Source: a virus
DNA length: 64,000 nucleotides
Strand: one strand, 5' to 3'
IMG/VR virus record: IMGVR_UViG_3300045988_167206
Coordinates: 32,001 to 96,000 of that record
Numbering within the stretch: the stretch's first letter is position 1; every line of letters begins with the position of its first letter. Under the pieces are notes generated by a model. That model saw only the letters and a list, made by a program, of their open reading frames with translations, did no database searches and was not told the origin of the DNA. A program made the position numbers and the translations under genes. This document shows, one piece after another, positions 11,886-47,333 of this stretch.

Positions 11886-11886
11886 G

Positions 11887-13461: not shown

Positions 13462-13613
13462 TTTATTATTAGTAAATAAGGAATTAAATAATCGAAAAGG
13501 ACACGCTTCATATAGACATAAAGGTGCTTATGGTCCAGCAGATAATTATTCAAAACATGATAAGCAGCAAGTTGAAGATGGAATACAGCAAATTAAAGAA
13601 TGGGAGAATGAAG

Positions 13614-14165: not shown

Positions 14166-14188
14166 ATTAAACAATGGAGGAAATTAAA

Positions 14189-14797: not shown

Positions 14798-14799
14798 TT

Positions 14800-15696: not shown

Positions 15697-15705
15697 GGAG
15701 AAAAT

Positions 15706-17063: not shown

Positions 17064-17075
17064 AGGAGTCTACAT

Positions 17076-18262: not shown

Positions 18263-18265
18263 AAT

Positions 18266-19732: not shown

Positions 19733-19734
19733 AT

Positions 19735-20172: not shown

Positions 20173-20184
20173 TAAGGGGTATTT

Positions 20185-20952: not shown

Positions 20953-21045
20953 TGATTAAAGTAATCAATGGAAGCATTTTAAATGCTAAAACAGATTTTA
21001 TTATTATTACAAGGAAAACTCAGTACCAAAAGAGGAGGAATAAAT

Positions 21046-21402
21046 ATGGATATTATTTATTTTGAGCTTAATAACTGGTTTTGTGGTAGAGATTATCCAA
21101 ATGATGAGCCATTTATTTCATGGATGAGTAATGATTTACAATTAAAATTCGATAACGAAGATTGGATTATTGAAAATAAATTATGTGTAGTAAAAACATT
21201 TGTAGACATGTCTTGTAATTTCTGTATTACTGCCACAAAGGAATGGGTAGAAGAGAATTGTCCTAAATTACTTACAGAATATAATGAGTTTTTAAGATAT
21301 CCTGATAAATATGGAGATACTTATGGAAAATTTGGAACATTATTTTTGGAATATTGTGTAGAAAATATTGGGTTGGAAGATAGAGAAGAAGATGATATTT
21401 AA
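21046..21402 (+). CDS. Hypothetical protein (118 aa)
   Basis: Start set to the ATG at 21046 behind AGAGGAGGA. The longer ORF-track N-terminus lacks an RBS. Confidence 0.6.
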   Translation: MDIIYFELNNWFCGRDYPNDEPFISWMSNDLQLKFDNEDWIIENKLCVVKTFVDMSCNFCITATKEWVEENCPKLLTEYNEFLRYPDKYGDTYGKFGTLFLEYCVENIGLEDREEDDI

Positions 21403-21418
21403 TGAAAGGATATAAGAT

Positions 21419-22174
21419 ATGAATTATTATTTTGATGCTAAAAAAGTAAAAGATGATTGCGTACAGTGGATTAGAGATTATTTTACAAAGAATGGACTAG
21501 ATTGCAATGCAATTGTTGGAATTTCTGGAGGAAAAGATTCTTCTGTTGTGGCTGCACTTTGCGCAGAAGCACTTGGAAAAGATAGGGTTATTGGTATTCT
21601 AATGCCACAGGGAATACAGTCTGATATTGGATATGCTCAAGAACTTTGTGCCGAACTTGATATTGAGAATTATACTATTAATATTGAATCTGCTTATAAA
21701 GCAATTAGAAATCAAGTAAAAGAGACTCTTAATGGGCATTGGAGCCAGCAGAGTGCCATTAATTTACCGGCAAGATTAAGAATGAGCATATTATATGCTT
21801 ATGCACAGACATTAAATGGAAGAGTGGCAAATACATGTAATCTTAGTGAAGATTGGGTAGGATATGCAACACGATACGGAGACTCTGCAGGAGATTTTAG
21901 TCCGCTTGCAAACTTTACAGTTGAAGAAGTAAAAGCTATTGGTAGAGAATTAGGTCTGAATGAGCTTTTAATTGAAAAAGTGCCAACAGATGGTCTTTGC
22001 GGTAAAACAGACGAAGATAACCTTGGTTTTACATATGCAGTTCTTGATAGATATATTAGAACTGGTAAAATTGACGATTTGGAAACCAAGAAGAAAATTG
22101 ATTATCTTCATGAAAAAAATGCGTTTAAGTTAAGATCAATGCCTACATTCAAATATCCACCTTGTCCATTTTAA
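21419..22174 (+). CDS. nadE: NH3-dependent NAD+ synthetase
   Basis: PP-loop GISGGKDSSV, then LPARLRMSILYAYA, GYATRYGD, PLANFTVEEV and VPTDGL...DEDNLGFTY. Confidence 0.9.
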   Translation: MNYYFDAKKVKDDCVQWIRDYFTKNGLDCNAIVGISGGKDSSVVAALCAEALGKDRVIGILMPQGIQSDIGYAQELCAELDIENYTINIESAYKAIRNQVKETLNGHWSQQSAINLPARLRMSILYAYAQTLNGRVANTCNLSEDWVGYATRYGDSAGDFSPLANFTVEEVKAIGRELGLNELLIEKVPTDGLCGKTDEDNLGFTYAVLDRYIRTGKIDDLETKKKIDYLHEKNAFKLRSMPTFKYPPCPF

Positions 22175-22186
22175 GGAGAATTAGAT

Positions 22187-22312
22187 ATGAAGCATGATAA
22201 TATTACAAAATGCATAGCATGGATTACAATCTGTATAGCAGTACTCGCCGGCTTATATTGGACAAAATCTCCGTCATGCTTATGGGCGTTCTGGATCCTA
22301 TTACTTATATGA
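22187..22312 (+). CDS. Small hydrophobic protein (41 aa), not in the ORF track
   Basis: MKHDNITKCIAWITICIAVLAGLYWTKSPSCLWAFWILLLI. Strong RBS AAGGAGA. Its stop overlaps the next ATG (ATGA at 22309-22312). Confidence 0.45.
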   Translation: MKHDNITKCIAWITICIAVLAGLYWTKSPSCLWAFWILLLI

Positions 22313-22671
22313 GGTGTAAAATGAAAAATAAAGATCAAATTAAATATACGATTAACCATAGAAAAGCTTTTCGAAAAGTAGAAAAAGAACTTCTTGGACA
22401 CAACACAGTAAGAAGTTTGTTTCATGACTTAGATAAAGTATTTTTGTACATGGTGTTCGACCATGAGAAAGTACATAATTGGCATAGATATCATAGTAGA
22501 CATCATCTAAAAGCCAGAACTCATGATGATTATGTGCAGATGGCAATTGATTGGGAATGTGCAAGGTTTACTAAACCAGATAAGCCATTAAATGCGAGAG
22601 AAACATTAAAGAAGATTCACCCAGAAGTCACAGATGAAATGCTTCCTGTATTAGAAGAATTGGGACTATGA
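22309..22671 (+). CDS. Small His/Asp-motif protein (DUF5662-like, possible metal-dependent hydrolase)
   Basis: HRKAF..(17)..HDLDK..(12)..HNWHRYHSRHH and DWECARFTKPDKP. Start placed at the coupled ATG at 22309; 22321 is also possible. Confidence 0.5.
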   Translation: MRCKMKNKDQIKYTINHRKAFRKVEKELLGHNTVRSLFHDLDKVFLYMVFDHEKVHNWHRYHSRHHLKARTHDDYVQMAIDWECARFTKPDKPLNARETLKKIHPEVTDEMLPVLEELGL

Positions 22672-23325
22672 ATGAATAAAGAAGATATTGTAGTATTATT
22701 TATTATATTAATTTTTATTGGATTCTTTTGTATGTATTTAATGGCGGCACGTATTTGGAAAGATATAGATAAAGAGATAGAAGAAGACAAACAAAGGAGA
22801 ATACATATGGCAAAACGAGTAGCAAAGTTCGAAAAAGTATCAAAACAGCAGTTTATTCAGGACTGGCAGCATGAATTTATGGGATCTGAAGAATGGGCTG
22901 GATTTATCTATGATCGAATTAAATTACCAGCAAGAGCAACAAAATTTTCAGCAGGATATGATTTCTTTGCACCAATGGACTTTACACTGAACCCGGGAGA
23001 AACTGTCAAGATCCCTACCGGTATCCGTTGTGGAATCAATACAGACTGGGTATTAATGATTTATCCTCGAAGCGGCCTTGGCTTTAAATATAGAGAAATG
23101 CTTGCAAATACAGTTGGAGTAGTAGATAGCGATTATTTTTATTCAGACAATGAAGGCCATATTTTTATCAAAGTTGTAAATGCCGGAGATAAAACACTTC
23201 ATATTGAAAGCGGGAATGGTTTTGCACAGGGGATTTTTACTGAATATGGTATCACAGAAGATGATCATGTTGAAGCAGAACGAAACGGTGGATTCGGAAG
23301 TACAGATAAAAAGGAACTTAAATAA
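22672..23325 (+). CDS. dut: dUTPase, with an in-frame 45-aa N-terminal TM extension (alternative start 22807)
   Basis: The five trimeric dUTPase motifs: AGYDF, IPTGI, PRSGLG, GVVDSDY and ERNGGFGSTD. An internal ATG at 22807 follows AAAGGAGA. Upstream codons encode IVVLFIILIFIGFFCMYLMAA. Confidence 0.85.
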   Translation: MNKEDIVVLFIILIFIGFFCMYLMAARIWKDIDKEIEEDKQRRIHMAKRVAKFEKVSKQQFIQDWQHEFMGSEEWAGFIYDRIKLPARATKFSAGYDFFAPMDFTLNPGETVKIPTGIRCGINTDWVLMIYPRSGLGFKYREMLANTVGVVDSDYFYSDNEGHIFIKVVNAGDKTLHIESGNGFAQGIFTEYGITEDDHVEAERNGGFGSTDKKELK

Positions 23326-23770: not shown

Positions 23771-24004
23771 ATGAATATTAGAATTAATGATACAAATGCG
23801 GCCAGAAAGCTTGTTTCTATTGCCAGCAACAAAAAATATGCAGACTACGATATTGATTGCATCTGCGGACGTTATATCATTGATATGAAGTCAATTATGG
23901 GAATGCTTTCATTTGCGCTTCCCACGGATGTAGATATTGTGATCCGGGCAGATGGGGATATAGAAAAAGAGTTTTACGAACATGTTAAACGTATAGCGTC
24001 ATAG
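23771..24004 (+). CDS. HPr-fold protein lacking the His15 equivalent (Crh-like)
   Basis: IDMKSIMGMLSFALPTDVDIVIRADGDIEKEF aligns to HPr VNLKSIMGVMSLG..G.EITI.A.G.DE. The active-site context reads TNAAR where HPr has GIHAR. Start taken at the ATG at 23771 after AAAGGA. Confidence 0.6.
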   Translation: MNIRINDTNAARKLVSIASNKKYADYDIDCICGRYIIDMKSIMGMLSFALPTDVDIVIRADGDIEKEFYEHVKRIAS

Positions 24005-24017
24005 ATGTATTACATCT
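24003..24017. promoter_or_regulatory. Perfect 15-bp palindrome AGATGTATTACATCT upstream of int
   Basis: Overlaps the stop of the Crh-like gene. The loop is too small for a hairpin, so a dimeric protein site is more likely. Half-site AGATGTAA recurs at 24088-24095, abutting the int ATG (24097). Confidence 0.35.
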
Positions 24018-24096: not shown

Positions 24097-25269
24097 ATGG
24101 GAAAAGATTTAAAAGGTAAAGAACTTGGAAAGGGGATTACACAAAGAAAAGATGGTAGATATCAAGCAAGATTTACTAATCGTTTTGGAAAAAGACAGAC
24201 GATATATGGTAAAACACTTAAAGAAATTAAAAATGCATTACATGAAGAAACTATAAAAGATTTACGAGAAGAAAATGTAAAAAATATTAAATTAACAGTA
24301 GATGAATGGTTTGAAATATGGTCCAAAACATATAAGGAAACTACAATTAAAAAAACTACATTTGCTAAAAATAAAAGAAATTATCAACATCAAATTAAAC
24401 CAGTTATAGGGAATAAAAAAGTCTCCGAAGTAACATCATTTGATATTGTTTCTTTAACCAGTAACATGGCAAAAAAATATACAAAAGGTTTTATAAGAGA
24501 TGTACATGGTATTTTATATGATATGTTCGAACAAGCGTACATAAATGAGCTATGCAAAAAAAATCCTGTTTATGGAACTAAATTTGGTGGAAAACCAAAT
24601 AGAAAAATACAAGCATTAAATATTGAAGATCAAAGTGAATTTTTAAAATCAAGTAAAGATAATTTTTATTATAATGCGTTTGTTGTACAATTAAATACCG
24701 GTTTAAGACTTGGAGAAATCATAGGTTTATGTGTTGAAGATATTGATTTAAAAAATAATATGCTTCATGTTAGACATAATATGATTATGGTTAGGAAAGA
24801 TGGAGATATTCCATCTTATTTAGAAATAAGTACACCAAAAACGAATGCTGGAATTAGAGATGTTCCAATAAATAAAGCATGTAGAAAAGCTTTGATCAAT
24901 CAACTTGAAATGCGATCTAATGTTATTTTTCCACATAAATTTCATCAATTAGTATTTTTTAGTAAAGATAATTTTTTACCAATAAGCCGATCAACATATT
25001 ATCGAAACATTAATAGTGTTGTTAAGAAAATTAATATTAAAAGAGCAAAAAATAATCAACCTCTTATAAAACAGTTTGGATCACATACTTTTAGACATAC
25101 ATTTGCAACGAGATGTTTTGAAGCTGGTATTCCACCTAAAACAGTACAGGTTTTACTAGGACATGCCAGCATACAAATGACATTAGATATTTATACATCT
25201 GTAATGCAAGATAAACGGGTTGAAGACTTAAAAAAATTTGACACTTTGATGGACACGTTATGTTTATAA
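24097..25269 (+). CDS. int: Tyrosine recombinase (phage integrase) with an N-terminal arm-type DNA-binding domain
   Basis: N-terminus GITQRKDGRYQARFTNRFGKRQTIYG (AP2-like arm binder). Catalytic signatures TGLRLGEI, HTFRHTFAT and LLGHASIQMTLDIYTS. Confidence 0.92.
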   Translation: MGKDLKGKELGKGITQRKDGRYQARFTNRFGKRQTIYGKTLKEIKNALHEETIKDLREENVKNIKLTVDEWFEIWSKTYKETTIKKTTFAKNKRNYQHQIKPVIGNKKVSEVTSFDIVSLTSNMAKKYTKGFIRDVHGILYDMFEQAYINELCKKNPVYGTKFGGKPNRKIQALNIEDQSEFLKSSKDNFYYNAFVVQLNTGLRLGEIIGLCVEDIDLKNNMLHVRHNMIMVRKDGDIPSYLEISTPKTNAGIRDVPINKACRKALINQLEMRSNVIFPHKFHQLVFFSKDNFLPISRSTYYRNINSVVKKINIKRAKNNQPLIKQFGSHTFRHTFATRCFEAGIPPKTVQVLLGHASIQMTLDIYTSVMQDKRVEDLKKFDTLMDTLCL

Positions 25270-25290
25270 ATGGTGTAAAAATGGTGTCAA
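25268..25290 (+). repeat. Tandem pair ATGGTGTAAAA/ATGGTGTCAA (candidate integrase arm sites, left)
   Basis: AAATGGTGTAAAAATGGTGTCAA, beginning at the last two nt (AA, 25268-25269) of the int stop codon. The same tandem unit recurs at 25655-25680. Confidence 0.5.
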
Positions 25291-25332
25291 TTAAAAGTAA
25301 ACACTGTGGAATACTGTAAAAATAAGTAAAGA

Positions 25333-25656
25333 GTTTCCACCTGTATGTATTACACCGGTATCCATCCGCTTACAGGGGAGAAGGTTTACATTCCGCGTGA
25401 CCCGCATGAAAAAGCCATCCAGCGTGCGCTGATGCAGTATAAGAACCCGGCAAACAGAAGCCTTGTACTGGAGGGGCTCAAGATCGCAGGACGCATGGAT
25501 CTGGTCGGTTTCGGCCCGAAATGTCTGCTCCGCCCGGAGAGAGACCGAAGGAAAGAATCCGGCAGAAATCCATCAGGAGGAGACCGCAGGAAGCCACAGA
25601 ACCAGGGACGTAAGCCCGCAAAGAAAACGATCCGCAATACGCATAAGAAAAAATAA
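25333..25656 (+). pseudogene. ygiQ: 3'-terminal fragment of a host-type ygiQ (UPF0313 radical SAM) gene, probable attP core/replacement 3' end
   Basis: VSTCMYYTGIHPLTGEKVYIPRDPHEKAIQRALMQYKNPANRSLVLEGLKIAGRMDLVGFGPKCLLRP matches the conserved YgiQ C-terminus (E. coli MYYSGKNPL...ALLRYHDPANWPLIRQAL...LIG). An in-frame stop lies at 25327-25329, so no full gene is present. G+C is visibly much higher than the flanks. Confidence 0.65.
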
Positions 25657-25680
25657 AATGGTGTCAAAATGGTGTCAAAA
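25655..25680 (+). repeat. Tandem pair ATGGTGTCAAA x2 (candidate integrase arm sites, right)
   Basis: AAAATGGTGTCAAAATGGTGTCAAAA, starting at the final A of the fragment's TAA stop codon (25654-25656). Confidence 0.5.
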
Positions 25681-35077: not shown

Positions 35078-35112
35078 TACCCATCATGTCCTTTCTTTGT
35101 TATTTATTTACA

Positions 35113-35145
35113 TAAAAAAAATAGACACCTTGCAATAGTGTCTAT
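35113..35145 (-). terminator. Rho-independent terminator ending the tubR-tubZ-rep cassette
   Basis: Minus strand: ATAGACAC, 9-nt loop, GTGTCTAT, then TTTTTTTT. Confidence 0.7.
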
Positions 35146-35173
35146 TTTAAACATACGCTTATAAAATTTAAGT

Positions 35174-35941
35174 TTAAAGATTTACGAGATTTGTGTAATG
35201 AGCATCTAGAGTCATCACTGAATTGTATAATGTCGAAATAATAAAACCTTTCGGATTACTAATTTGCTTATCATAATTACGCAGTACATTAACAACGTAC
35301 TGAATATGAAACATTTTAACTTTTAAAAATGATGATTTTACAATATCAACTGAAATATCATTTCCGTTGATAGAAATATATTTCATATTGCTACATAATA
35401 CTTCAACCATAACATCTACGATATTGTCAACAAGCTTTTGATCAATCGAACCAACAAACACTGCATCGTAATCTATGTTTGTTCGTATAGTATTAATACA
35501 TATAGTATTATTATTTAAAGTATTATTATATATGGATGATTTTCCACTTGTGGAAGAACCAGCGGGTGGAAAAGCCACATGTGGAAAATCACCATCTGGC
35601 TCTACAGAACCCACATGTTGAAAATCCACATGTGGATCATCGCACACTTCATATTCATAGTAGAAACGTTTTGTTTCAATATCTTGAAATTTATATTGGA
35701 TCAAATATCCATGATCTTTCAATTCCCTCCATGCACCACGAAAAGAAGTTTCACCATCCGTAGATTTGCTTAATAAAAAATCTTTGTACAATGTAAAGCC
35801 ATCTAATGTAAGATATGACTCTATAATGGCAAGTAGCCCTTTAGCTTTAAGGGACAGTGTTTCGTCCCTTAAAGCCACGTTGCTTACCTGGGCATAGTAG
35901 GTTCTTTTCTTTCTGATCATGCCAGATTTTTTATCAGCCAT
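35174..35941 (-). CDS. Replication-initiator-like protein (RepA_N-type winged helix N-terminus plus DUF6017-like C-terminus); TubY-like modulator is an alternative
   Basis: N-terminus YYAQVSNVALRDETLSLKAKGLLAIIESYL...WRELKDHGYLIQ. C-terminus VDNIVDVMVEVLCSNMKYISINGNDISVDIVKSSFLKVKMFHIQYVVNVLRNYDKQISNPKGFIISTLYNSVMT resembles the C-terminal domain of Clostridial plasmid/ICE initiators. Confidence 0.55.
   Translation of the reverse strand: MADKKSGMIRKKRTYYAQVSNVALRDETLSLKAKGLLAIIESYLTLDGFTLYKDFLLSKSTDGETSFRGAWRELKDHGYLIQYKFQDIETKRFYYEYEVCDDPHVDFQHVGSVEPDGDFPHVAFPPAGSSTSGKSSIYNNTLNNNTICINTIRTNIDYDAVFVGSIDQKLVDNIVDVMVEVLCSNMKYISINGNDISVDIVKSSFLKVKMFHIQYVVNVLRNYDKQISNPKGFIISTLYNSVMTLDAHYTNLVNL
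35541..35640. repeat. Iteron-like repeat cluster inside the rep-like gene (candidate origin)
   Basis: CCACATGTGG at 35575-35584 and 35627-35636. CCACATGTTG at 35611-35620. The first and third-listed of these at 35575 and 35611 are followed by AAAATC. Palindrome TTCCACTTGTGGAA at 35542-35555. GGTGGAAAAG at 35565-35574. Confidence 0.5.
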
Positions 35942-35949
35942 TTTCTCAC

Positions 35950-37005
35950 CTACTTATTTTTCATTTGCATTAATCGTTCTCTAGCAGATAATGGTTTCTT
36001 TTCTGGTATGGATCCAGAAATACTAATAGAATAGTCATCTTTGAATAATGTTTGAGTTTGAGTAGATTTCAAATCTTCCTCTATTTTCTTTTTATCATCT
36101 TGAATAGATTCGTACAGTTTATTGATGGTAGTTGCAGGATATTGAAGGCCACTCATAAATATCAAATTTGTTTTAGTTTGATATCCAACAAATAAATCTC
36201 TCCAATATCCAAATTGAAGCTGCAGTTCTGTAGTGTTGATTGAAATAGTTTTTCTTGTGTTGGAACTCTTGATTCCACAATAATACAAAGGATTACGAGA
36301 TTCAATATCACAAAATATGTTGTCTGTAACTGCCTTCTTTAGATCTGCTGTAATGTCAGATTGGTTTGGCTTTCTTGAAAATGTGTTCAAAATCCCATAT
36401 CCTGAACATTCTAACATAGAACAGATTTCACTATAATCATAAATGCCGTCTATAGAAGTAGAAACATCGGAAACGAGAGAATAGACAACTTCAGCCAAAA
36501 TCTCATTACTTTTCGAATAATTAAGTTCCTTATTATTATCTACGATAAAAATAGTGTGCTTTGCAGTTTCAATTAATTCCCTCAATGCTTCATAAGCATT
36601 TGTTTTAGCCTGAAGCGATTCTGAAAAATTAGGTATTGTAACTACCGGGATCACAATCTTATTTAATTCGGATTCAATAAGCTCTGTTAATAAAGCGCAC
36701 ATTCCGGAAAATGTTCCTCCACCAATAGATCCAAATACAAAAATATATCTGCCAGTTAAATGGCGTTCAATATATTTCAATATGTCTTCATAATTATTTG
36801 CTAAATAATTTTTAGAAACATTTCTATCTTTGTGGCAGCCATTTGCACCTTCCAGATGATAATAATGAATATTATCTGTGCCTAGACTCTGCAGGTCTTC
36901 CAGTGCGCTATTAATATAAAAACTATTTACTCCATATTTTTTAAATGCAGCAACTTGATTCCCTCCGCAAGCACCAACACCGAGGAACGAAAAATTATTT
37001 TTCAT
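35950..37005 (-). CDS. tubZ: Tubulin/FtsZ-superfamily GTPase (TubZ/PhuZ-like)
   Basis: N-terminal GVGACGGNQVAAF (FtsZ G-box 1 context) and the tubulin signature FGSIGGGTFSG. 351 aa. Preceded by an overlapping small winged-helix gene, as in tubRZ operons. Confidence 0.8.
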   Translation of the reverse strand: MKNNFSFLGVGACGGNQVAAFKKYGVNSFYINSALEDLQSLGTDNIHYYHLEGANGCHKDRNVSKNYLANNYEDILKYIERHLTGRYIFVFGSIGGGTFSGMCALLTELIESELNKIVIPVVTIPNFSESLQAKTNAYEALRELIETAKHTIFIVDNNKELNYSKSNEILAEVVYSLVSDVSTSIDGIYDYSEICSMLECSGYGILNTFSRKPNQSDITADLKKAVTDNIFCDIESRNPLYYCGIKSSNTRKTISINTTELQLQFGYWRDLFVGYQTKTNLIFMSGLQYPATTINKLYESIQDDKKKIEEDLKSTQTQTLFKDDYSISISGSIPEKKPLSARERLMQMKNK

Positions 37006-37267
37006 CTTGATTACCTCCGACTATTTCAATTCCAGATTTTGTAATGTAATACATTTTTTCTCTGCCATCGGTTCCAGATTGACAAATCAAATTATTTGCG
37101 ATCATGAAATTGATATGTTTCCAGACAGTGCTTCTGGTCACATTTGTAATTTCCATCTCTTTAATTGTTAATCCGAAAATAGCAGAAGTAGCACCACTTT
37201 TAAATAGAGTTGTCAAAATCAAATAATCAGTTCGGCTAAGTTCTGCAGAGTGCTTATCTGTTCTCAA
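36995..37267 (-). CDS. tubR: Small winged-helix DNA-binding protein (TubR-like centromere binder)
   Basis: 90 aa, LILTTLFKSGATSAIFGLTIKEMEITNVTRSTVWKHINFMIANNLI. TTG start after GAGGTGAG. Overlaps tubZ by 11 nt. Confidence 0.55.
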   Translation of the reverse strand: MRTDKHSAELSRTDYLILTTLFKSGATSAIFGLTIKEMEITNVTRSTVWKHINFMIANNLICQSGTDGREKMYYITKSGIEIVGGNQDEK

Positions 37268-37338
37268 AATTTCTCACCTCTTTCTAAGTATTCTTATAAG
37301 TTGATATGGTTTCACAAGTGTTCGTAATTAGATTATAA

Positions 37339-37388
37339 TTAATATTGTTCAAAAAGTCAACAAAATGATTAATATATAATCAAAAAGT
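37339..37388. repeat. Direct repeat TTAATAT-N4/5-CAAAAAGT x2 upstream of tubR (candidate centromere/operator)
   Basis: TTAATATTGTTCAAAAAGT at 37339-37357 and TTAATATATAATCAAAAAGT at 37369-37388, about 30 nt apart. A third TTAATAT at 37416-37422. Confidence 0.35.
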
Positions 37389-37421
37389 TTAAAACAAAAA
37401 CAACTAATAAGAATATTAATA

Positions 37422-37430
37422 TGATATAAT
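37422..37430 (+). promoter_or_regulatory. Extended -10 promoter element TGaTATAAT for the HTH gene
   Basis: TG at 37422-37423 and TATAAT at 37425-37430, 24 nt upstream of the ATG at 37454, with RBS AGAGGTGA in between. Confidence 0.45.
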
Positions 37431-37453
37431 GTAAATACCAGAGGTGATGAAAT

Positions 37454-37657
37454 ATGAAGATATCATACGAGAATTTATTTTTATACTTTTTTAAGAATAA
37501 TATAAATATGCTTGAGGCATCTAAAAAAAGTGGTGTAAGCAGAAATACACTTATGAAAATGAAAAAAAACGAACCAGTTCATTTAAATGTTATTCTCGCG
37601 ATTTGCGAGGCATATGATTTGGATTTATTTGATGTGGTAGAAATAGTAAGAGAGTAG
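37454..37657 (+). CDS. Xre/Cro-type helix-turn-helix regulator (67 aa)
   Basis: MLEASKKSGVSRNTLMKMKKNEPVHLNVILAICEAYDLDLFDVVE fits the short HTH_26/YozG-like pattern. Divergent from tubR. Confidence 0.75.
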   Translation: MKISYENLFLYFFKNNINMLEASKKSGVSRNTLMKMKKNEPVHLNVILAICEAYDLDLFDVVEIVRE

Positions 37658-37682
37658 AAGAATTATCTTATTAAGTTCTTCT
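37656..37682 (+). terminator. Weak hairpin after the HTH gene
   Basis: AGAAGAA, 13-nt loop, TTCTTCT, followed by a T-rich stretch. Confidence 0.35.
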
Positions 37683-37753
37683 GATTTACTATTTTTTTAT
37701 CTGAATCTCATATTTTTGTTATTTAGATACTAGGAAAATTTTCTCCCACAGAT

Positions 37754-38827
37754 TTAATTTGTAGCAAACAGTCCTTTAATAGATGCTGATGGAATAGCTT
37801 CGTATCCTTCACCAACAAGTCCCTGAAGATTTTTAATAGCAGTAGCATTTGCTGCAATTTTAGGTTTTTCTGTTGCCATATCAGTTTCAAGAGTTTTGAC
37901 TTTTCCTTCAACTGTCGTTACTCTACCTGAAACAGCTGTAATATTATCTGCGTTTGTTTTATCAGCAGCTTCAAGTGTTGGAATTTTCTTTTCTAAAGTA
38001 TCAATTCTTCCAACTGCGGCTGTTAAATCTTTAGCTTTTGCATACTGACTCAAATCAGAATCAGCAAGAGCTTTTGATACATATTCTGCAATGTAACCTA
38101 CAATATCTTTAGATGTAGCTGTGTCTGGAAGAGTACCGATAAGAGTTTTCAGTTTAGTGATATCTTCTTTATTAGTCTTGATCTGGCTGTTCATTCCAGC
38201 AGCGTCAGATGCATGACTTGAAATCCAGTCAGAAATTTCCTTTAAAGTGTCATAGGCTTCTGGAGCACCATTAACAATAGAAGCAACAGCATCAGATACC
38301 GCTTTCTTTACAGAACCATCGCCAGTACCATTTAATGTTGCAATAGCTGTTGTATTCTTGTTTACTTCCGCTTTTAATGCAGTATCATCATAATGACCAG
38401 CTGTTACAGCTTCTTTAATATAAGATACTACATCTTTGGATTTTGCACCTGCTGGAATAGTACCAACATAAGTCATTACTTCACCTTTTGCTTTTGTAGC
38501 AGATCCTGCCACATCAAAATCTGTAACTGACTTTCCAGAATCAATTAAATTACCATTTGCATCAAGCCCCGCAAGGTGGCCATTAACCGCACCAGTTACT
38601 TTGTCAGCTTTTCCACCATCTTTAGGGAGAGTAATAGTAAACACAGCATCTTCGGTTGTAACAGGAGCAGTTTTTGTGTAAAAATACAGTGTAAATCCGT
38701 CAGTTGACTGAGAAACAGTCTTAATAGAGCTTTTTACTGCTTCAGATATCTTTGAGTCGATTTGCACATTATGAAGTGATAAAAACTCTGTAAGATTAGA
38801 AAGTGTAGCGAATTGTAATTTAGCCAT
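37754..38827 (-). CDS. Ala-rich coiled-coil structural (fibre-like) protein
   Basis: Start set to MAKLQF after GAAGGAGG. Repeated A/T/K-rich segments with GxxPxxAxSKDxVxYI occurring twice. Confidence 0.6.
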   Translation of the reverse strand: MAKLQFATLSNLTEFLSLHNVQIDSKISEAVKSSIKTVSQSTDGFTLYFYTKTAPVTTEDAVFTITLPKDGGKADKVTGAVNGHLAGLDANGNLIDSGKSVTDFDVAGSATKAKGEVMTYVGTIPAGAKSKDVVSYIKEAVTAGHYDDTALKAEVNKNTTAIATLNGTGDGSVKKAVSDAVASIVNGAPEAYDTLKEISDWISSHASDAAGMNSQIKTNKEDITKLKTLIGTLPDTATSKDIVGYIAEYVSKALADSDLSQYAKAKDLTAAVGRIDTLEKKIPTLEAADKTNADNITAVSGRVTTVEGKVKTLETDMATEKPKIAANATAIKNLQGLVGEGYEAIPSASIKGLFATN

Positions 38828-40019: not shown

Positions 40020-43000
40020 TTATCCTTCACATGAGATTGAGAACATAATAAGCACTCCGGCAGTCTGAGGATAATAGTATCCATTAATTCTACCTGGAGT
40101 ATCATCTCCACCGTCAACACCATATAACCATGTGCCAGGACTTTGATCAACATCAGCAGATCTTGTAGGATATGCTTCATAAATATTTGGAGTTGAAACT
40201 TTAGCTCTACGTCTCACAAAATCACTGGTCATGAAAGAAATAGTAGAATCCGTTTCTATAGAATATGGTTCGCCAGATATTGTTGGATCAATTTCATATA
40301 CAGAAGGAATATAGAAATAACATTCTGATGTAGATGTTGTTTTTGCTTTATCAGCATTATTAGCAATTACATTTACTTTCTTAATAAGAGATTTCCATAA
40401 AGGAGGAATTGCCTTTGGTAATCTGGTATTCAACCATGAGTTAAGCGAAGATTTAGCCCATCCACCGGAAATATTTCCATATGCACAGTTTGCACTTAGA
40501 AGGTTTTTGCCGATAAATGTAATGTTTGCTCTCTTAGTTGTATTATCGGATAGATAATATTCTTTGTACTTAGCAACCATCATTGGAATAGTCTCATGTA
40601 CCCAAGCAGCAATATCCTTGCATTCACCATCACCAAGATCTGCATACCACAGTTTAGCCCAATGAATCTTTCCTTTTGCATATTTCTCATATTCGCCATC
40701 ATCAGCTTTTGAACATCCAAATACAAGAGTAGATGGAATCACAGGGATTCTGATAGCAGAAAGAGTGGTGGTTGACACTTCATTACCAGTCAGATTTGAA
40801 CAATATATATAAGCTTGTTCGCTTCCGGCTTTATGTCGGATAACAACAAGCTCTCTATCTGCAATACCTGCTGGATTTGTACTCTTTGTTCCCCAGTTAA
40901 GGTTTACATTTGAGCTATACCATAATCTGAATCCGTTTGAACCATTAGACTGGAAGCATTGTGCAAGAGTTGCACCAGAAGTATTTCCTGCGTCAAATTC
41001 AAAATCGATTGCAAATGTGAAGTCTCGGTCAATATCCATAATGGTAGTATTAGTATCAATATAATTGGTACCATCAAATTCAGTCGTTTCAGATATGAAT
41101 TCTTTACTTTCCACATCGTCATAATTATAATCAACACCAAGTTTAAAGTTTAATGTATCTGCTTCTTTAGTCTTTTCTTTTTCAAGACTCATCTTCATCA
41201 TTGTGTAGAGTTCAACTTCAGAAAGATTTCCAAGATCTTTTCCATCAAAGTATCCTGTAGTATACTCACAGGAATCAAATACTGTATAAATCTTCTTATT
41301 TCCTGTAACAAGACCGGATTTATCCCATTCTTTGAAGAGATAATACTTAAATGCAGATTCTTCAGCTGTATATCTTGGAGTTTCTCCTTCATATTCAATA
41401 GTTGAACCAAATGGCCCAGTAGAAGACTGCAATACAGTTTCAGATGCATTTAGAGTTGGTTTCAGAATATATTCAACAGTATAATTACGAATAACTGGAT
41501 CATATACAGCAGTAATTACTCTATCCGCAAATATTTTGGTAAATGCAGAATCCCAACGTTTAAATACAAAGTCATTTTCAACTGTACTCGGAATAGTAGG
41601 AGTTTTAATAGGATTTAAACTTCTTGTAAGAGGATCTTCACCATCTGCTCCTTTATCAACATACTGAATATCTAATACTGTATGAGCTTCATCAGCATTA
41701 ACACATGTAATCTTATACTGTACGATTAAAGAATCGTAGGAGACCTCAAGATTAGACCAAATACCTTTTTGTTCATCTGTTCCGATATACTCTTTCAATT
41801 CCTGATCACGAATTACAGGGATGTGAATTGTTCCGGTGAGAACCGAATGATCTGTATTAAATTCGTTTTCATCTTTTCCGGAAAGTTTCGCTAGTACTTT
41901 TAAGATATCAGTATTATCCAAATTCCAATTAATACCTGTTACAGTTACAGTCTTCAAAGATTTAATAGCTTTTTTAATAATACTTAAAGCGTCAATTTTA
42001 GAGTTCCTACAAATAAAAGTTTCAAGATTTTCATAAGAAGGAATAACTAAATCAGTAAGATTCTGTAAATCTTTAAATGTAAGAGTATTAATTGTTGCAG
42101 GAAGATAAGCATGTGTAATTTTTCCATGTGTTGCAAATGATACAGAAGAAATGATTGTTCCTGAAGCATTTAATTTCAGAAGATTTTCACATGCAGAAAG
42201 GTTAATAGAACCGGTAAGATTTGGACAATTTTGAACATCAAGTTCTTCAAGGAGAACGTTATTACCCATATTCAGATTAGTTAAGAAAGAGTTTTGATAT
42301 CCTTCTGTATCATTACCAATAATAAGAGTTTTCAGTTTAGAAGCCTTTGAAAAATCATTATCATGGATGTAACATGCTGATAAGTTGTTTAAAGCCTGAA
42401 TTCTGGATGCACAGTAGATCAATACTGCAGTATCATCCATATTCGTAAGATTTGTGGTAATTTCATATTCCTGTCCAGCTTTTGCACGTACTTGAGTTGG
42501 ATTAGCTGAGTTACCGTATAATACAGATATATACATATCAGAATATGGAACAATTCTTAATGTGTAATCTGGTTTTACAACAGCTTCTTTAGGAGTGTTA
42601 CACCTGAACATAATCTGGTCAGATTTTACATCTGTATGTACAAATTTAGTTCCCATATATGCATGCTGATCACGTTCCCATTGTCTTCTTTGATATTTTT
42701 TACGCCCGTTCATCATTTCCTGAAGGAATCTAATAGTTCCCGCCTGGTATGTACGTAAATATAATCTTTCGTAATGAAGTCTCCACAATTCTTCCGGGAA
42801 CATTTCTTGCCATGTATCAAATTCATTGATAAGGTGAGTGTCGCTCCAACAGTTTGCATTTACTGACTGATATAGATTACGTAACTGTGGTTGCATTAAA
42901 TCACGAATACGGCACCATAATACACTTTCAGCGGCATTAAAGATATAACCAGAAGATGGATTTCTGTCTGTTTTATAGTCAGTATCTTCTTTACCATAGG

Positions 43001-46000
43001 ACATAGTAAGCTCTCCGCTATTATTTATTCCCAAGCCTGTATCGTTATCGTAATCCCAAAAGTCAAATCTATAACCATTATTTATTGCTGCTTTAGAATT
43101 GTCTATTATATAGTATTGCGCCTTCTCGCCTGCTTCGGCTGCTTCAGATGCACTCATATAATGTTTAGCCCAATGAGGAAAGACATTTTTGGCTCTATTG
43201 TCTATCATTGTATATCTCAATGTGAATAAATATAAATATTCAGCAGCTTCTTCGATCATCCAATCTCCAAGATGAGCAACAAAATCTTCATCAGAAGAAG
43301 TAATAACAAATTCATAAAAATCGCGCCAGATTTGACGGTTATTTGTACGAATCTTTTCCTTTACTTCATCTGTAGAAATAGCAGTGCCGTCTTTAGAATC
43401 CCCACAACAATCATAGCGGAATTCAAACGAACCATCCCAATTATTGTAAAGGTTATCGTAAGCGGTATTGCCTGTTTTCCATTCTGTCTTTGTAATTGGA
43501 TATTTTATTGTTCCATCTGGATTTATTACGCCTGTCTGGAATGCTGAGTTCGGGAGAGTATTATCAGAAATTTCAATACAGAACTCTTTCATGTCATCTG
43601 GGTCGTAGGCTCTTGTAACGTCAGTCTTCTTAGAATCACCCATATTACCTAGAGAATAAAAATGCCAATCAGTATCTTGGAATTCTCTATGAGTAGAAAC
43701 ATCAGGATCACTCTCCTTAAGGAAGATCACACAATTAACAAACTCCATAGAGTTCTTGACTTTCGGATCTTTTCTTGTTGCCGGATTTGAATAAGGAAGA
43801 TAGTCATTAAATCGTTTTTGAAGTAATGCATTATTAGTCATTTCAGAAGAGGCCACATTTACCTTAAAGTTCCACCAGTTATTAGGAATTGAATTTCTTG
43901 TAAGAGATATCTTACCTGTTCCGTCAATAGTTTTACTTCCATCGCCAAGTTCAAGTATTGTCTTATAATCTGGATCTAATGTGATTTTGCTATTAACCTG
44001 ATGTTCTCCATCAAAGCAGCAAATAACATCAATATTTCTTGCAGCAAAACCATATTCATTAGAAGTTGTACCTTGTCCAGCATGATAACAATTCGTGAAT
44101 TTCCAGTTATCAAGCACAGGATCACCATTTGTGTAAATACATTGCATTGATGTATTTTTTACAAAATCTTTTTTATCATTTGTAAAGTGTGGTGCTTCAA
44201 TTTTAATAATCCTTAAATCCGGACACGCTTTTGCAACTGATTCAGGAGTGAGAGAATTGTTTTCATCATAAATTTGATTACGCTCAAATCTAGCAATCAT
44301 GTCATCTGCATCTCTTGCATCTGCAATGAAATTAGCGAGAATATCTGTATCTGTTAGAGAAGCAGAATATGCTTTCATTCTATAAATATGCACATCGCAA
44401 TCATCACAACCAATTGTAATTGGAAGCGGTTCATACTGATACAATCTATGTACGTCATTATAGATCATAGGTCTGCCACCGACACCATCTTCATAAGTCA
44501 TTATAATAGATGTCGCACCATCAGTTTTAGTATCAAGAGCATTTATATTAAACTCGTATTCAATAATATCTTCTTCACTGTATGGAAAATATAAACTGCT
44601 TGTTGAAGAATAGATATTTGCTTCATGTACATTCATTTCAAGACCAACAGGATTTGCATCTTTTTTATTGATACAAGATAGGAAAGTAGCGGAAGCATCA
44701 CGAACATTTGTAGTTTTGAATACAACTTTAAATTCAGAACCAGTCTGTTTTGGATCAATTCCAAAAAGATTATAATTAATTTTAACAGTTGTTCCGGCTT
44801 TTACACAAAAGTATTGGTTTCCATCTTTATCAATCTGATATCCACCATTTGACCAGTCAAAATTATCGGATACTGTCATTGCGATATTTGAATGATTTTT
44901 ATCAGACCAAAGTCTGTTTGTATCACTATTTGAATATCCAGTTGGATTAAAATCAAATTCAAGATTTGCAGTTACAGGCTCAACATCAATATCCAGCTTC
45001 TCAATATTTGCTTTAAGAATCTTTGTAACTTTTCGGCAGGAGATAGTCAAATCATGACTTCCAACATCTGAAGATTTATAACTCCAAGTCTGTACGGTAC
45101 GATTAACAGATAATGTAGATACAGTATTTCCATTTACAGCTAATTTTACTGTTGCAGGATTGTGATCAGGATCATATACAACATATGGAATATTTGTAGC
45201 ATGATACTGCTGAGTGGTAAATTCCTGCATTGCACAACCAATAATAGGAGTTCTTTCATCTGGATTAACCCAGATAATATCTTTAATGATTGTAGATGAT
45301 TGAATAGCCTGGTTATTTACAGTAGCTGTCATATATACTTTCAGTAAATGTGCGCCGTGAGATTGTTTGGTTAAAACATAAGACAACTGTCTACCAGAAG
45401 CAGTGGTGTTTACTGAATCTAATTCAACACCGTCAAGAATAAAGTGTACTGTCTTATTAATATTTCCATAAGGGATATATCTGAATGAGACTTCATCAGA
45501 ATAGAAGAGTGTATCATCAAAAGAACTCTCTAATTTAAAATCAACAATTGTGATTGTCCAAGTTTTTGTTGAAAGAGTACCAACACTATCAGTGATTGAT
45601 AATCTGATAGAATTTGTACCTGTTTTAAGAAATTCTGTAAGATCAATACTATTTCTACCTTGACCTACTGTAAGAGTAGACACAGTTGTATTATCAACTT
45701 TCCATACAGCTGTACCAATACCTGTGGAATCACCAACATTATCAACTGATGACCAAGTATATTCAATCACAGCTTTATTGCCAAGTAGGAAAATAGCATC
45801 GGCCGGAGTAACACGTTCAATTGTCATTGTAGAAGTAGTAGTTCCGCCGCCGCCTCCACCTTGAATCGTAAATGTTTTAACGGTTTCTCCATTTTCTTTC
45901 CAATAGAAAATGTTATCAGCATAATCAACATCATATTCAGTAGATGCCGGATTTTCTTCTAACTTTTTAACTCTTCCCTCTAAATTATCAAAATTTGTTC

Positions 46001-47333
46001 CTAGGCTATCAACGGCTTCTTTATTTCCGTCAACAGTCTGTTTCATGTTGTTGACTGTATTAGTTGCTTGAGACACATCTTCCTTGAGCTGTGGAATTTC
46101 TGCTACAGATGTTTTCAGCTTTCCAATAGCATCTTCATTGGTTTTAATTTTAGTATCACGAACTGTATCAGCTTCGTTTATTTTATCTAGAGAAGATGTT
46201 AGAACGGTAATTTTCTGTCCATTCTCAGCCTGTTGCTTTTGAATAGACTGAATACTATTGTTAATAGGAGTGATATTAGCAGCTATCCATTCAGTAGAAG
46301 GATCAATTGAACCAAGTTCAACAGAAGTAATAGGTTCTTCAATTCCTTTCTGATAAAAACTCAAAACACCTTTTCCATCAGAAGTAGTGTATTTTGCCTG
46401 CAATTTAGATAGGCTGTCAATATCAATTACTGTGTGAGCAATTTCTTTTTTACTATCTTTATATAACAGAGTAAGAGTCTGATTTGCTTTTATATAAGAA
46501 ATATCAAGATTTGCCAATCCATCCATATTATCTATGGCATTTCTAAGCAAAGAAATAGAATCATTAATACTTTTTTCTTGTGTATCAATTTCTGTTTTAG
46601 TGTAATAATTTATTAGAGAAGATGTATTATTGATCTCATCTCTGATTTCACTCATAACAGATTCTTTGATGTTATTCAGCTTTTCATTGACTTCAGTAGC
46701 TGCATTTTTAGCTTCAGTAGCAGCTTTTTTTGCTTCCTTTGTGTATTCTATAACTTTCTTTTCAAAAGAAGTCATCCATCCAGAATCCGAAGGCTCGATT
46801 GCTCCATTAATATCAATACCCTGTAAAATATTAATTTTTCCATTAGGTCTCGTGCTCCATGCATAAATCAGATTATCAACTTGTCCTGTTGCACGAATTT
46901 CAAATATATATTCACCTGGTGATCTGGTAAGTTTATCATCAATTAACCACCCAAAACAAATATATTGACTATTACGTTTTACATTGACAATGGAATATTC
47001 TCCAGGAGTTCCACCAGTTAATTTATCACTATAACGAATACAAATCGTCATTTCGGATAAATCAATACCATCATAGTATCTTGGAATTTTGAATGGTATG
47101 TACTGACTGTTTGATTCTTGCGTAATATTGATCTGCGAAGAATCCATCGTAATATTTTTATTTTCATCTACAGTAGAATATTTTTCGTCATTATATTGGT
47201 TATATTGATCATAGCCGGATACAATCTCATAATCATCTCCTGCATATACAGCTACACCATTATCATCTGAAGCAAGCGTCATTGCTTCAAATGATGTAGC
47301 CATAGCTTTTCTTTTTGCGTCTTTAAATGACAT
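40020..47333 (-). CDS. Giant multidomain baseplate/receptor-binding protein (2437 aa): BppU_N-like, coiled coil, three Ig-like modules, CotH-like, LRR-like, LamG-like, C-terminal domain
   Basis: N-terminal BppU-like segment. A coiled coil over roughly aa 190-470. Gly5 then repeated beta-rich modules. MIDNRAKNVFPHW...FDFWDYDNDTGLG (CotH kinase-like) at about 43.0-43.2 kb. LRR-like LxxLxLxxN repeats at about 41.95-42.42 kb. FDGTNYIDT...FRLWY (LamG-like) at about 40.85-41.15 kb. Confidence 0.8.
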   Translation of the reverse strand: MSFKDAKRKAMATSFEAMTLASDDNGVAVYAGDDYEIVSGYDQYNQYNDEKYSTVDENKNITMDSSQINITQESNSQYIPFKIPRYYDGIDLSEMTICIRYSDKLTGGTPGEYSIVNVKRNSQYICFGWLIDDKLTRSPGEYIFEIRATGQVDNLIYAWSTRPNGKINILQGIDINGAIEPSDSGWMTSFEKKVIEYTKEAKKAATEAKNAATEVNEKLNNIKESVMSEIRDEINNTSSLINYYTKTEIDTQEKSINDSISLLRNAIDNMDGLANLDISYIKANQTLTLLYKDSKKEIAHTVIDIDSLSKLQAKYTTSDGKGVLSFYQKGIEEPITSVELGSIDPSTEWIAANITPINNSIQSIQKQQAENGQKITVLTSSLDKINEADTVRDTKIKTNEDAIGKLKTSVAEIPQLKEDVSQATNTVNNMKQTVDGNKEAVDSLGTNFDNLEGRVKKLEENPASTEYDVDYADNIFYWKENGETVKTFTIQGGGGGGTTTSTMTIERVTPADAIFLLGNKAVIEYTWSSVDNVGDSTGIGTAVWKVDNTTVSTLTVGQGRNSIDLTEFLKTGTNSIRLSITDSVGTLSTKTWTITIVDFKLESSFDDTLFYSDEVSFRYIPYGNINKTVHFILDGVELDSVNTTASGRQLSYVLTKQSHGAHLLKVYMTATVNNQAIQSSTIIKDIIWVNPDERTPIIGCAMQEFTTQQYHATNIPYVVYDPDHNPATVKLAVNGNTVSTLSVNRTVQTWSYKSSDVGSHDLTISCRKVTKILKANIEKLDIDVEPVTANLEFDFNPTGYSNSDTNRLWSDKNHSNIAMTVSDNFDWSNGGYQIDKDGNQYFCVKAGTTVKINYNLFGIDPKQTGSEFKVVFKTTNVRDASATFLSCINKKDANPVGLEMNVHEANIYSSTSSLYFPYSEEDIIEYEFNINALDTKTDGATSIIMTYEDGVGGRPMIYNDVHRLYQYEPLPITIGCDDCDVHIYRMKAYSASLTDTDILANFIADARDADDMIARFERNQIYDENNSLTPESVAKACPDLRIIKIEAPHFTNDKKDFVKNTSMQCIYTNGDPVLDNWKFTNCYHAGQGTTSNEYGFAARNIDVICCFDGEHQVNSKITLDPDYKTILELGDGSKTIDGTGKISLTRNSIPNNWWNFKVNVASSEMTNNALLQKRFNDYLPYSNPATRKDPKVKNSMEFVNCVIFLKESDPDVSTHREFQDTDWHFYSLGNMGDSKKTDVTRAYDPDDMKEFCIEISDNTLPNSAFQTGVINPDGTIKYPITKTEWKTGNTAYDNLYNNWDGSFEFRYDCCGDSKDGTAISTDEVKEKIRTNNRQIWRDFYEFVITSSDEDFVAHLGDWMIEEAAEYLYLFTLRYTMIDNRAKNVFPHWAKHYMSASEAAEAGEKAQYYIIDNSKAAINNGYRFDFWDYDNDTGLGINNSGELTMSYGKEDTDYKTDRNPSSGYIFNAAESVLWCRIRDLMQPQLRNLYQSVNANCWSDTHLINEFDTWQEMFPEELWRLHYERLYLRTYQAGTIRFLQEMMNGRKKYQRRQWERDQHAYMGTKFVHTDVKSDQIMFRCNTPKEAVVKPDYTLRIVPYSDMYISVLYGNSANPTQVRAKAGQEYEITTNLTNMDDTAVLIYCASRIQALNNLSACYIHDNDFSKASKLKTLIIGNDTEGYQNSFLTNLNMGNNVLLEELDVQNCPNLTGSINLSACENLLKLNASGTIISSVSFATHGKITHAYLPATINTLTFKDLQNLTDLVIPSYENLETFICRNSKIDALSIIKKAIKSLKTVTVTGINWNLDNTDILKVLAKLSGKDENEFNTDHSVLTGTIHIPVIRDQELKEYIGTDEQKGIWSNLEVSYDSLIVQYKITCVNADEAHTVLDIQYVDKGADGEDPLTRSLNPIKTPTIPSTVENDFVFKRWDSAFTKIFADRVITAVYDPVIRNYTVEYILKPTLNASETVLQSSTGPFGSTIEYEGETPRYTAEESAFKYYLFKEWDKSGLVTGNKKIYTVFDSCEYTTGYFDGKDLGNLSEVELYTMMKMSLEKEKTKEADTLNFKLGVDYNYDDVESKEFISETTEFDGTNYIDTNTTIMDIDRDFTFAIDFEFDAGNTSGATLAQCFQSNGSNGFRLWYSSNVNLNWGTKSTNPAGIADRELVVIRHKAGSEQAYIYCSNLTGNEVSTTTLSAIRIPVIPSTLVFGCSKADDGEYEKYAKGKIHWAKLWYADLGDGECKDIAAWVHETIPMMVAKYKEYYLSDNTTKRANITFIGKNLLSANCAYGNISGGWAKSSLNSWLNTRLPKAIPPLWKSLIKKVNVIANNADKAKTTSTSECYFYIPSVYEIDPTISGEPYSIETDSTISFMTSDFVRRRAKVSTPNIYEAYPTRSADVDQSPGTWLYGVDGGDDTPGRINGYYYPQTAGVLIMFSISCEG

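Follow-up and report, generated by a model that had tools for sequence, protein, structure and literature searches.

Type III partition systems (TubZRC) pair a tubulin-fold GTPase, TubZ, with a winged helix-turn-helix (wHTH) protein, TubR, and have so far been studied on a handful of plasmids from Bacillus and on a single plasmid prophage, c-st. The Bacillus systems (pBtoxis, pXO1 RepX and pBM400) are carried by large virulence plasmids, with direct repeats upstream of tubR and a tubRZ region that is tied to plasmid replication. In c-st, which is phage-borne and belongs to Clostridia, tubR is followed by tubZ and then by tubY (CST190, CST189 and CST188), and the centromere, tubC, extends over ~350 bp. 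The TubR protein of c-st recognises TTGAC and (A/T)GAA iterons, which occur in blocks that reach over the promoter (PMC6009700). Here, we describe a tubR-tubZ-rep cassette in 64,000 nucleotides of virus DNA (positions 32,001 to 96,000 of IMG/VR record IMGVR_UViG_3300045988_167206; the window, numbered 1 to 64,000) and compare it with related database loci, termed L006 to L049. The cassette encodes a highly divergent type III partition system that lacks TubY, forms an operon with a DnaD-like/DUF6017 initiator-type protein, is paired with an Xre-type regulator and is dispensable on integrating gut phages. On balance, we favour the view that it is a self-contained, plasmid-type accessory module that replicates and segregates the ~125-kb phage DNA while this is extrachromosomal.

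The closest described relative is c-st. Both loci are phage-borne in Clostridia and place tubR before tubZ, c-st TubZ is the best match of the window protein in the Protein Data Bank (PDB) and in phage records (E 1e-21 to 9e-31), and both have iterons (candidate ones in the window) upstream of tubR and over its promoter, with TTGAC and (A/T)GAA-like units. The differences are considerable. Sequence identity to the c-st system is only 25–27% (27% for TubZ), the position that TubY holds after tubZ is taken by the DnaD-like/DUF6017 protein Rep, the conserved module of the window also includes a divergent Xre gene, and the candidate tubC spans ~40–100 bp. Furthermore, c-st is a plasmid prophage, whereas the carrier of the window cassette integrates into the chromosome and the cassette itself is dispensable and portable. 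With the Bacillus systems the cassette shares a wHTH TubR, a tubulin-fold GTPase, direct repeats upstream of tubR and a link to replication, but those systems are found on plasmids and not on an integrating phage, and their TubZ proteins go undetected by a profile of the window family at E <= 1e-3. Type III systems have been defined as carried by an extrachromosomal replicon, that is, a plasmid or plasmid prophage; here the carrier integrates, and a non-integrated form also exists.

The cassette occupies 35097–37787 on the minus strand, a segment of 2.7 kb that is missing from close relatives. It begins with the divergent Xre gene, followed by tubR (36995–37267), tubZ (35950–37005) and rep (35174–35941) on the minus strand, with their own promoter and terminator. 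The open reading frames (ORFs) are tightly packed: tubR and tubZ overlap by 11 nt, and 8 nt separate the tubZ stop codon from the start of rep. Transcription would end at an intrinsic terminator at 35118–35148 (minus strand), whose 12-bp stem and 7-nt loop precede a T-run (TTTTTTTT). The Xre/Cro-type helix-turn-helix (HTH) regulator of 67 aa is encoded at 37454–37657 on the plus strand (Pfam HTH_26, E 5.6e-8), and it is kept beside tubR, at 53–73% identity, in L021, L023 and L027–L034. A first-pass annotation of the same DNA, made from the sequence alone, had called three minus-strand ORFs of 90, 351 and 255 aa and a divergent Xre-type gene, all of which are present as described; the strong terminator that it placed at 35113–35145 is a real hairpin with slightly different limits. 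Ratios of non-synonymous to synonymous substitution (dN/dS) are 0.07 for tubZ, 0.15 for rep and 0.16 for tubR, denoting purifying selection similar to that on the flanking structural genes. These values rule out a decaying remnant.

The GTPase, 351 aa in length, matches Pfam Tubulin (E 2.4e-15) and Tubulin_2 (E 2.3e-8), and carries the motifs GVGACGGNQ at residue 9, GGGTFSG at residue 95 and the T7-loop DGIYDYSE at residue 186. The G-box GGGTxSG and the acidic T7-loop DxxD..E (residues 186–193) are invariant across the family members compared, and a C-terminal peptide, LSAREKLM, is conserved in all of them after a variable linker (~residues 313–335). When the single sequence was searched against the PDB, the best matches were two c-st TubZ entries, aligned over the full length at E 2.6e-25; FtsZ appeared at only ~1e-6, and neither PhuZ nor Bacillus TubZ was among the matches listed. 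A profile built from 15 family members gave the same order, with c-st TubZ at 9.1e-31, then 3zid at 5.9e-14 and FtsZ at 2.6e-7 or weaker. Profile alignment by hhalign gave a probability of 99.3% to c-st TubZ over 306 columns, against 2.5% to PhuZ of phiKZ, and of the PHROG families, that of PhuZ aligns with the GTPase half of the protein only (1.7e-7), while another covers its full length (1.4e-25). By these comparisons the GTPase is a TubZ of c-st type, in agreement with the initial assignment to the tubulin/FtsZ family, and membership of the PhuZ or FtsZ families was ruled out. The PhuZ spindle of nucleus-forming jumbo phages is likewise built from a phage-encoded GTPase of tubulin/FtsZ fold, but no PhuZ entry was among the matches listed in the PDB searches, PhuZ has no TubR adaptor or centromere, and the carrier here is a temperate phage of ~125 kb.

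Related TubZ proteins are scattered. A tblastn search of phage records with TubZ matched only c-st, D-1873 and Bacillus phage G, and a near-identity DNA search of the whole cassette against 50,697 phage records found no match. Plasmid matches are mostly large replicons, namely c-st-like plasmid prophages of C. botulinum and plasmids of Bacillus, Pontibacillus, Desulfosporosinus and Cetobacterium; none exceeds 34% identity, and alignments that cover most of the protein do not exceed 28%. An exhaustive search returned 29 representative clusters at E <= 1e-30 and 308 at E <= 1e-10, so that this TubZ belongs to a branch around c-st TubZ that is modest in size, diverse and uncharacterised. The identical protein is indexed in 73 blocks of a public assembly collection, on contigs of ~115–150 kb.

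The first gene of the operon encodes a 90-aa protein with a TTG start preceded by AAAGAGGTGA. The protein alone gives a weak match to c-st TubR in the PDB (E 0.022). A profile of 23 family members aligns with c-st TubR (6tey, chain CST190) over its whole length at E 1.5e-5, which is the sole significant match. The AlphaFold2 model, with a mean predicted local distance difference test (pLDDT) of 84, has TubR of pBM400 as its top Foldseek match (4asn, template modelling score 0.74), with c-st TubR (6tey) at rank 6 and pBtoxis TubR (3m8e) at rank 22. Profile and modelled fold thus agree with the earlier suggestion that this winged-helix protein is TubR, the predicted centromere-binding protein of the system. 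PADLOC reported a partial DrmC match to TubZ residues 115–176 and a match of TubR to a CARF-associated wHTH; both were judged local or generic, and neither is evidence of a defence system.

The control region lies between tubR and the Xre gene, and was aligned for eight loci that represent about four independent lineages, with TubZ identities to the window from 100% down to 48%. On the minus strand, a promoter of the form TTGACT-N17-TATAAT at 37332–37360 scores 11/12 in a consensus scan, and TTGAC-N-TATAAT is kept in all eight divergent loci compared. Between its -10 box and the ribosome-binding site of tubR, at 37284–37323 on the minus strand, are four iterons phased at 10 bp (GAACACTTGT, GAAACCATAT, CAACTTATAA and GAATACTTAG). 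A lag of 10 is the single outstanding autocorrelation in the tubR leader of every one of the eight loci (z 2.9–6.7), while the repeated motif itself varies. The clade comprising L029–L034 has three or four AACACTTTRT units, and L017, with a TubR only 33% identical, has GAATA-type units. In L021, the leader holds ~14 tandem units of GAACTTTTTT type (9500–9740), the clearest tubC-like array of the family. Conserved phasing combined with a motif that changes with the protein is the pattern expected of a TubR-binding array. The -35 box of the window promoter, TTGACTTTTTGAAC, contains TTGAC as well as (A/T)GAA-like units, and since it holds both iteron types of c-st, tubC is placed at 37284–37323 as the best candidate, with a possible second block at 37338–37388.

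That second block is a bipartite repeat, ATTAATAT...TCAAAAAGT, in two copies, one of which coincides with the -35 box and spacer of the tubR promoter. It may be a further part of tubC or an operator for the Xre protein. The first-pass annotation had singled out this element, as a TTAATAT-N-CAAAAAGT repeat, for the centromere or operator, a choice that is not supported. The direct repeat TCAAAAAGT occurs at 37349 and 37380, 31 nt apart, and first-order Markov simulations of the 186-bp AT-rich stretch around it yield an exact repeat of at least 9 nt in ~44% of cases, so that the repeat by itself is not above chance. Moreover, the bipartite arrangement is conserved in near relatives only, and the leader iterons are the better candidate. 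The Xre gene probably has its promoter at 37422–37430 on the plus strand, where an extended -10 box, TGATATAAT, is proposed from conservation: TGnTATAAT is found ~20–25 nt before the Xre start codon in every Xre-bearing locus aligned. This site is preferred to a plus-strand promoter at 37311–37339 that the consensus scan returned, which is probably the mirror image of a near-palindromic -10 box.

The third protein, Rep (255 aa), has two folded domains joined by a disordered linker (residues 106–142). The C-terminal domain is DUF6017 (PF19481; residues 150–254, E 8.5e-21, 75.2 bits against a cut-off of 27), for which a literature search found no paper. The N-terminal domain is a winged helix that resembles DnaD and the Rep protein of phage TP901-1; it matches PHROG families 4707, 428 and 186 (replication initiation, DnaD-like helicase loader) at 2e-13 to 1.5e-7, and residues 1–107 are 39% identical to TP901-1 Rep. 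Over the same residues, identity is 51–58% to a 'DnaD domain protein' of C. perfringens and C. botulinum plasmids (35–58 kb) and to a protein of the 13.7-kb circular Sarcina plasmid p4, on which the rep homologue is the only replication candidate. In pCQ92, a C. perfringens phage-plasmid with holin and amidase genes, the rep homologue stands back-to-back with a ParM partition gene. The top match of the Rep fold in BFVD is a 'Replication initiator A family protein' (E 4.6e-10), and a sequence search of the PDB with Rep found nothing. The domain homologies identify the third protein as a DnaD/TP901-1-Rep-like protein of initiator type. An initiator was one of two functions first proposed for it; the other, an analogue of TubY, finds no backing in comparison with c-st TubY (CST188), to which Rep shows no similarity (BLASTP E 4.3), and a Pfam scan found no MerR domain. 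A full-length DUF6017 homologue is encoded at 6001–6855 of L026 (Vescimonas fastidiosa pMM35_01), a conjugative element, between genes for a KilAC antirepressor and PcfB/VirD4, which suggests that DUF6017 proteins also serve integrative and conjugative elements (ICEs), possibly by replicating the excised form.

In phages lambda (O/ori-lambda) and TP901-1 (Rep/ori), the origin lies within the initiator gene, where iterons and an AT-rich tract occupy the segment that encodes the linker between domains. The rep gene of the window has a comparable layout. Four CCAC(A/T)TGTGG palindromes lie within 94 bp at 35544–35637, in the linker-coding part, and are probable origin iterons. With one mismatch allowed, the palindrome CCACATGTGG occurs five times in the 64-kb window against 0.87 expected, four of the five being inside rep, and none of 100 shuffled windows reached five matches. 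In all rep homologues, the corresponding position holds three to five copies. Most copies encode P-x-V (P-H-V), and one, TCCACAAGTGGAA, is read in another frame as S-T-S-G, which argues that the constraint acts on the DNA. Adjoining the iterons at 35486–35533 is an AT-rich tract, a candidate DNA-unwinding element, that includes an 18-nt AT-only repeat and encodes an Asn-rich segment of the linker; such a tract follows the iterons in all rep homologues. On the analogy with lambda, rep is argued to carry its own origin, and palindromes and tract together are a probable internal origin. Unlike lambda O and TP901-1 Rep, the protein has a C-terminal DUF6017 domain, and its gene is part of a partition operon and not of an early replication module.

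The cassette is an insertion in an otherwise continuous gene array. The flanking genes are tail-fibre-like and match PTR, Mtd_N, Gp10_C and several PHROG tail-fibre families. Relatives with an empty site were found through a neighbouring 289-aa protein: in L046, L048 and L049 (80–88% identity) the cassette is missing at exactly this site, homology to the window stopping at 37788 and restarting at 35096, so that the 363-aa fibre gene is followed by a terminator hairpin and then by the 85-aa gene. A second clade, L029–L034 (TubZ 68% identical), has the same four genes in the same order at another genomic position, directly beside an integrase gene and an attP-like spacer that is rich in repeats. 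In another three contexts (L017, L020 and L021), tubR-tubZ has no DUF6017 gene next to it. The sequence comparisons therefore bear out two early impressions, that the unit interrupts a fibre array and that it is mobile: it behaves as a portable, dispensable module. Since close relatives do without the whole cassette, Rep is unlikely to be the essential initiator of the phage, with the qualification that the TubZ scan of IMG/VR was pattern-based and that divergent copies elsewhere in those genomes could escape it.

The borders and contexts of the cassette show some further variety. At 37641–37694, between the converging ends of the Xre and 363-aa fibre genes, is a 19-nt inverted repeat (79% complementary, 16-nt loop), which may be a bidirectional terminator at the cassette border. 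In a near-identical phage, two additional small ORFs (50 and 88 aa) separate the fibre gene from Xre (L006 8898–9344), showing that the right-hand border is itself variable. The prophage in L021 (positions 3698–4867 and 9500–9740) is far smaller, and it has a Mu-like baseplate and a reverse transcriptase of the diversity-generating retroelement type; its Xre-tubR-tubZ module comes after the lysis genes, and no rep gene follows.

The carrier is an integrating temperate phage of ~125 kb in gut Clostridia. A 390-aa tyrosine integrase is encoded at 24097–25269 on the plus strand (Pfam Phage_integrase, E 4e-28, with Tn916-type DNA-binding and SAM-like domains), and at 25334–25656 (plus strand) is a G+C-rich attP core of 323 bp, a copy of the final (3') part of a ygiQ-like radical-SAM gene of the host (DUF3362), into which the phage integrates. 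The host junctions were recovered by searching with the integrase and the holin. The attL junction (L037) matches the window from 25334 on and the attR junction (L009) matches it up to 25656, leaving a block of 323 bp common to attP, attL and attR. At attR, the integrase gene and a DUF3362 fragment are followed by host genes for a pseudouridine synthase, RecU and histidine biosynthesis; at attL, the holin gene is followed by a full-length radical-SAM ygiQ-like gene (635 aa), then relA and recG. L037 is a 312-kb scaffold that carries an identical TubZ, and host genes flank the prophage in L009, L037 and L039. Many contigs break exactly at att. Others have the attP form, including the window itself, the stand-alone 126,640-bp contig L007/L036, L008 and L038, so that an extrachromosomal phase is real.

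Some details of the attachment (att) sites may be added. The 323-bp block, which is an unusually long stretch of identity, is bracketed by AATGGTGTCAA-type repeats (~25270–25292 and ~25657–25680) that may be arm sites for the integrase. No tRNA genes that could be attachment sites were found in the window or in four loci. In L023, the prophage of AM36-2AA, a truncated-tRNA-like sequence (GCACCTGTAGCTCAGTGGATAGAGCAGTGG..., minus strand, 20760–20820) lies ~950 bp past the holin gene, with no ARAGORN call; it is possibly left over from an att site, in which case that relative would integrate elsewhere. In the 25-kb scaffold L039 (SZOS23-1_SAMN29183113_METAG-scaffold_452), attR and attL are ~6 kb apart, and the genes run int, HPr, truncated dUTPase, lysin and holin. 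Either a massive deletion has left only a remnant of a prophage here, or the 125-kb prophage was collapsed during scaffolding.

The repA-parAB region of P1 maintains a plasmid prophage by pairing a replicon with a partition system. The window cassette is comparable to the P1 and pCQ92 regions in that an initiator with its own (here probable) origin adjoins a partition cassette, on a phage that has separate machinery for lytic replication; the motor is ParA or ParM in those regions as against a tubulin-like protein here, and the carrier here has an integrase and integrates. Maintenance, by which we mean replication and segregation of the phage DNA while it is extrachromosomal, is the most economical role for such an assembly; besides the rep-par regions of phage-plasmids, the replication-partition functions of SXT/R391 ICEs (PMC4489591) are a parallel to it. 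TubR would bind iterons with 10-bp phasing in the leader of its own gene and across the promoter, both building the tubC complex and repressing the operon, while TubZ would polymerise, engage the TubR-tubC complex through its conserved C-terminal peptide and move the DNA. Rep would bind the four CCACWTGTGG palindromes in its own linker-coding DNA and, in the manner of lambda O at ori-lambda, open the AT-rich tract beside them; it would also recruit the helicase-loading functions of the host. We infer that low-copy replication and segregation of this kind could take place before integration, after excision, or in hosts that have no attachment site.

Several observations weigh against the maintenance role. 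The cassette is dispensable, given the close relatives that do without it, and the loci in which no DUF6017 gene adjoins tubR-tubZ imply that cooperation of Rep with TubRZ is not obligatory. The phage encodes an integrase and occurs in integrated form, so that ordinary lysogeny does not call for plasmid maintenance; a relative with the same layout (TubZ 81% identical) is found in a 499-kb scaffold of cultured Ruminococcus sp. AM36-2AA. DNA in attP form could be virion DNA, a replicative intermediate or a plasmid, and it may simply be virion or lytic replicative DNA. The candidate tubC of the window has only four to five short, degenerate iterons, far below the array of L021. Finally, the Rep fold gives only weak matches among solved structures, to DnaB and to the N-terminal part of DnaD (Foldseek E 0.33), and there is no Pfam match of Rep to RepA_N (PF06970) at E <= 0.1.

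The strongest alternative keeps the same parts and mechanism but assigns them to lytic growth or induction: TubR would tether excised or incoming DNA to TubZ filaments and so place it favourably for efficient replication, and Rep would fire an auxiliary origin, raising the yield of phage DNA instead of maintaining a plasmid. The integrated prophage CGP3 of Corynebacterium provides the precedent: its AlpAC system, with leader repeats downstream of the transcription start, is switched on early once the prophage has excised, and the circular DNA does not replicate fully without it (PMC4446434). CGP3 and the window share an adaptor-first operon with repeats in the leader, and the window phage too is integrative, with an integrase and att junctions. 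A parallel is also found in the ICEs of the SXT/R391 group, which encode srpMRC plus replication functions (PMC4489591). Like the carrier of the cassette, these are integrated elements with a cytomotive filament and a DNA adaptor, used for a transient extrachromosomal circle; unlike it, AlpA-AlpC and srpMRC have actin-like motors, and CGP3 has no linked initiator. Against an induction-phase role, the affinity of the GTPase is to c-st TubZ, a plasmid-partition protein, and not to PhuZ, a protein of the lytic cycle, and the pairing of rep with partition genes is typical of plasmid-prophage maintenance regions such as that of pCQ92. The cassette also has its own sigma-A-type promoter and terminator inside a block of late genes, which suit expression independent of the lytic programme, and it is dispensable in close relatives. 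We regard this alternative as unlikely, though it deserves to be kept in mind.

A plasmid prophage like c-st, with the cassette as the main means of lysogenic maintenance, was the first-pass reading, in which the phage persists as an actively partitioned episome. The closest characterised homologues of TubZ and TubR are indeed those of c-st, and attP-form contigs are common, so that the extrachromosomal part of the claim stands. As the main mode of lysogeny it is largely refuted and now highly improbable: the window encodes a tyrosine integrase and contains an att core of 323 bp, both host junctions, attL and attR, were recovered for a phage with identical TubZ on the 312-kb scaffold, contigs breaking exactly at att are as expected of mixed integrated and free forms, and near relatives without the cassette are otherwise the same phage. 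Least probable of all is that the third gene encodes a filament modulator or regulator, a functional TubY analogue whose linker palindromes reflect only a repeated peptide, for despite its TubY-like position after tubZ, its N-terminal DNA-binding domain and a DUF6017 domain of no described function, it is dissimilar to c-st TubY, homologues of its N-terminal domain are found in TP901-1 Rep, DnaD-like loaders and the rep candidates of plasmids, the palindrome read in another frame and the adjoining AT-rich tract point to a DNA element, and several tubRZ loci have no third gene.

A more specific proposal can be made, which we offer tentatively as a possibility and not as the expected outcome. 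The cassette could provide a facultative second mode of lysogeny, in which the phage is integrated where attB is available and otherwise, or after excision, exists as a low-copy plasmid with stable segregation; the choice between the two states would lie with the divergent promoters of Xre and tubR. Were this true, the line between integrative prophages and phage-plasmids would be blurred, as work on SXT/R391 blurred that between ICEs and plasmids. Irrespective of such a dual mode, the cassette family places type III partition in abundant phages of the human gut, provides a physical link between it and a defined initiator whose gene contains a candidate origin, and presents it as a dispensable cassette riding on integrating phages. 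There are natural pairs of phages with and without the cassette, such as the 126,640-bp contig and the 114,717-bp contig of L046, and the 2.7-kb unit is a possible minimal replicon-plus-segregation device for Clostridia.

Other parts of the window and of its relatives contain further features. Directly upstream of the integrase gene, at 23772–24005 on the plus strand, is a 77-aa gene for a phosphotransferase system HPr-like protein, which is kept in all related loci. In L012, a 25-kb scaffold, an identical 390-aa integrase and an HPr-like gene are joined to MrpR-like recombinases, DUF8224 and fragments of BRCT and ligase genes; with this different upstream gene set, the same integration module must serve more than one element. 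The structural block of the window includes giant ORFs of 2,437 aa (40020–47333) and 2,763 aa (54838–63129), both on the minus strand, the former matching only PHROG families of unknown function. Downstream of genes for a PolIII-alpha-like polymerase and a RecD2-like helicase, a long plus-strand block at 5864–23325 is devoted to the metabolism of nucleotides and nicotinamide adenine dinucleotide (NAD), and encodes guanylate kinase, a class II-like ribonucleotide reductase, an isochorismatase/nicotinamidase-like protein, adenylosuccinate synthetase and a phosphoribosyl pyrophosphate (PRPP)-synthetase-like protein, together with NAMPT, NAD synthase, dUTPase and an SPFH/Band-7 protein.

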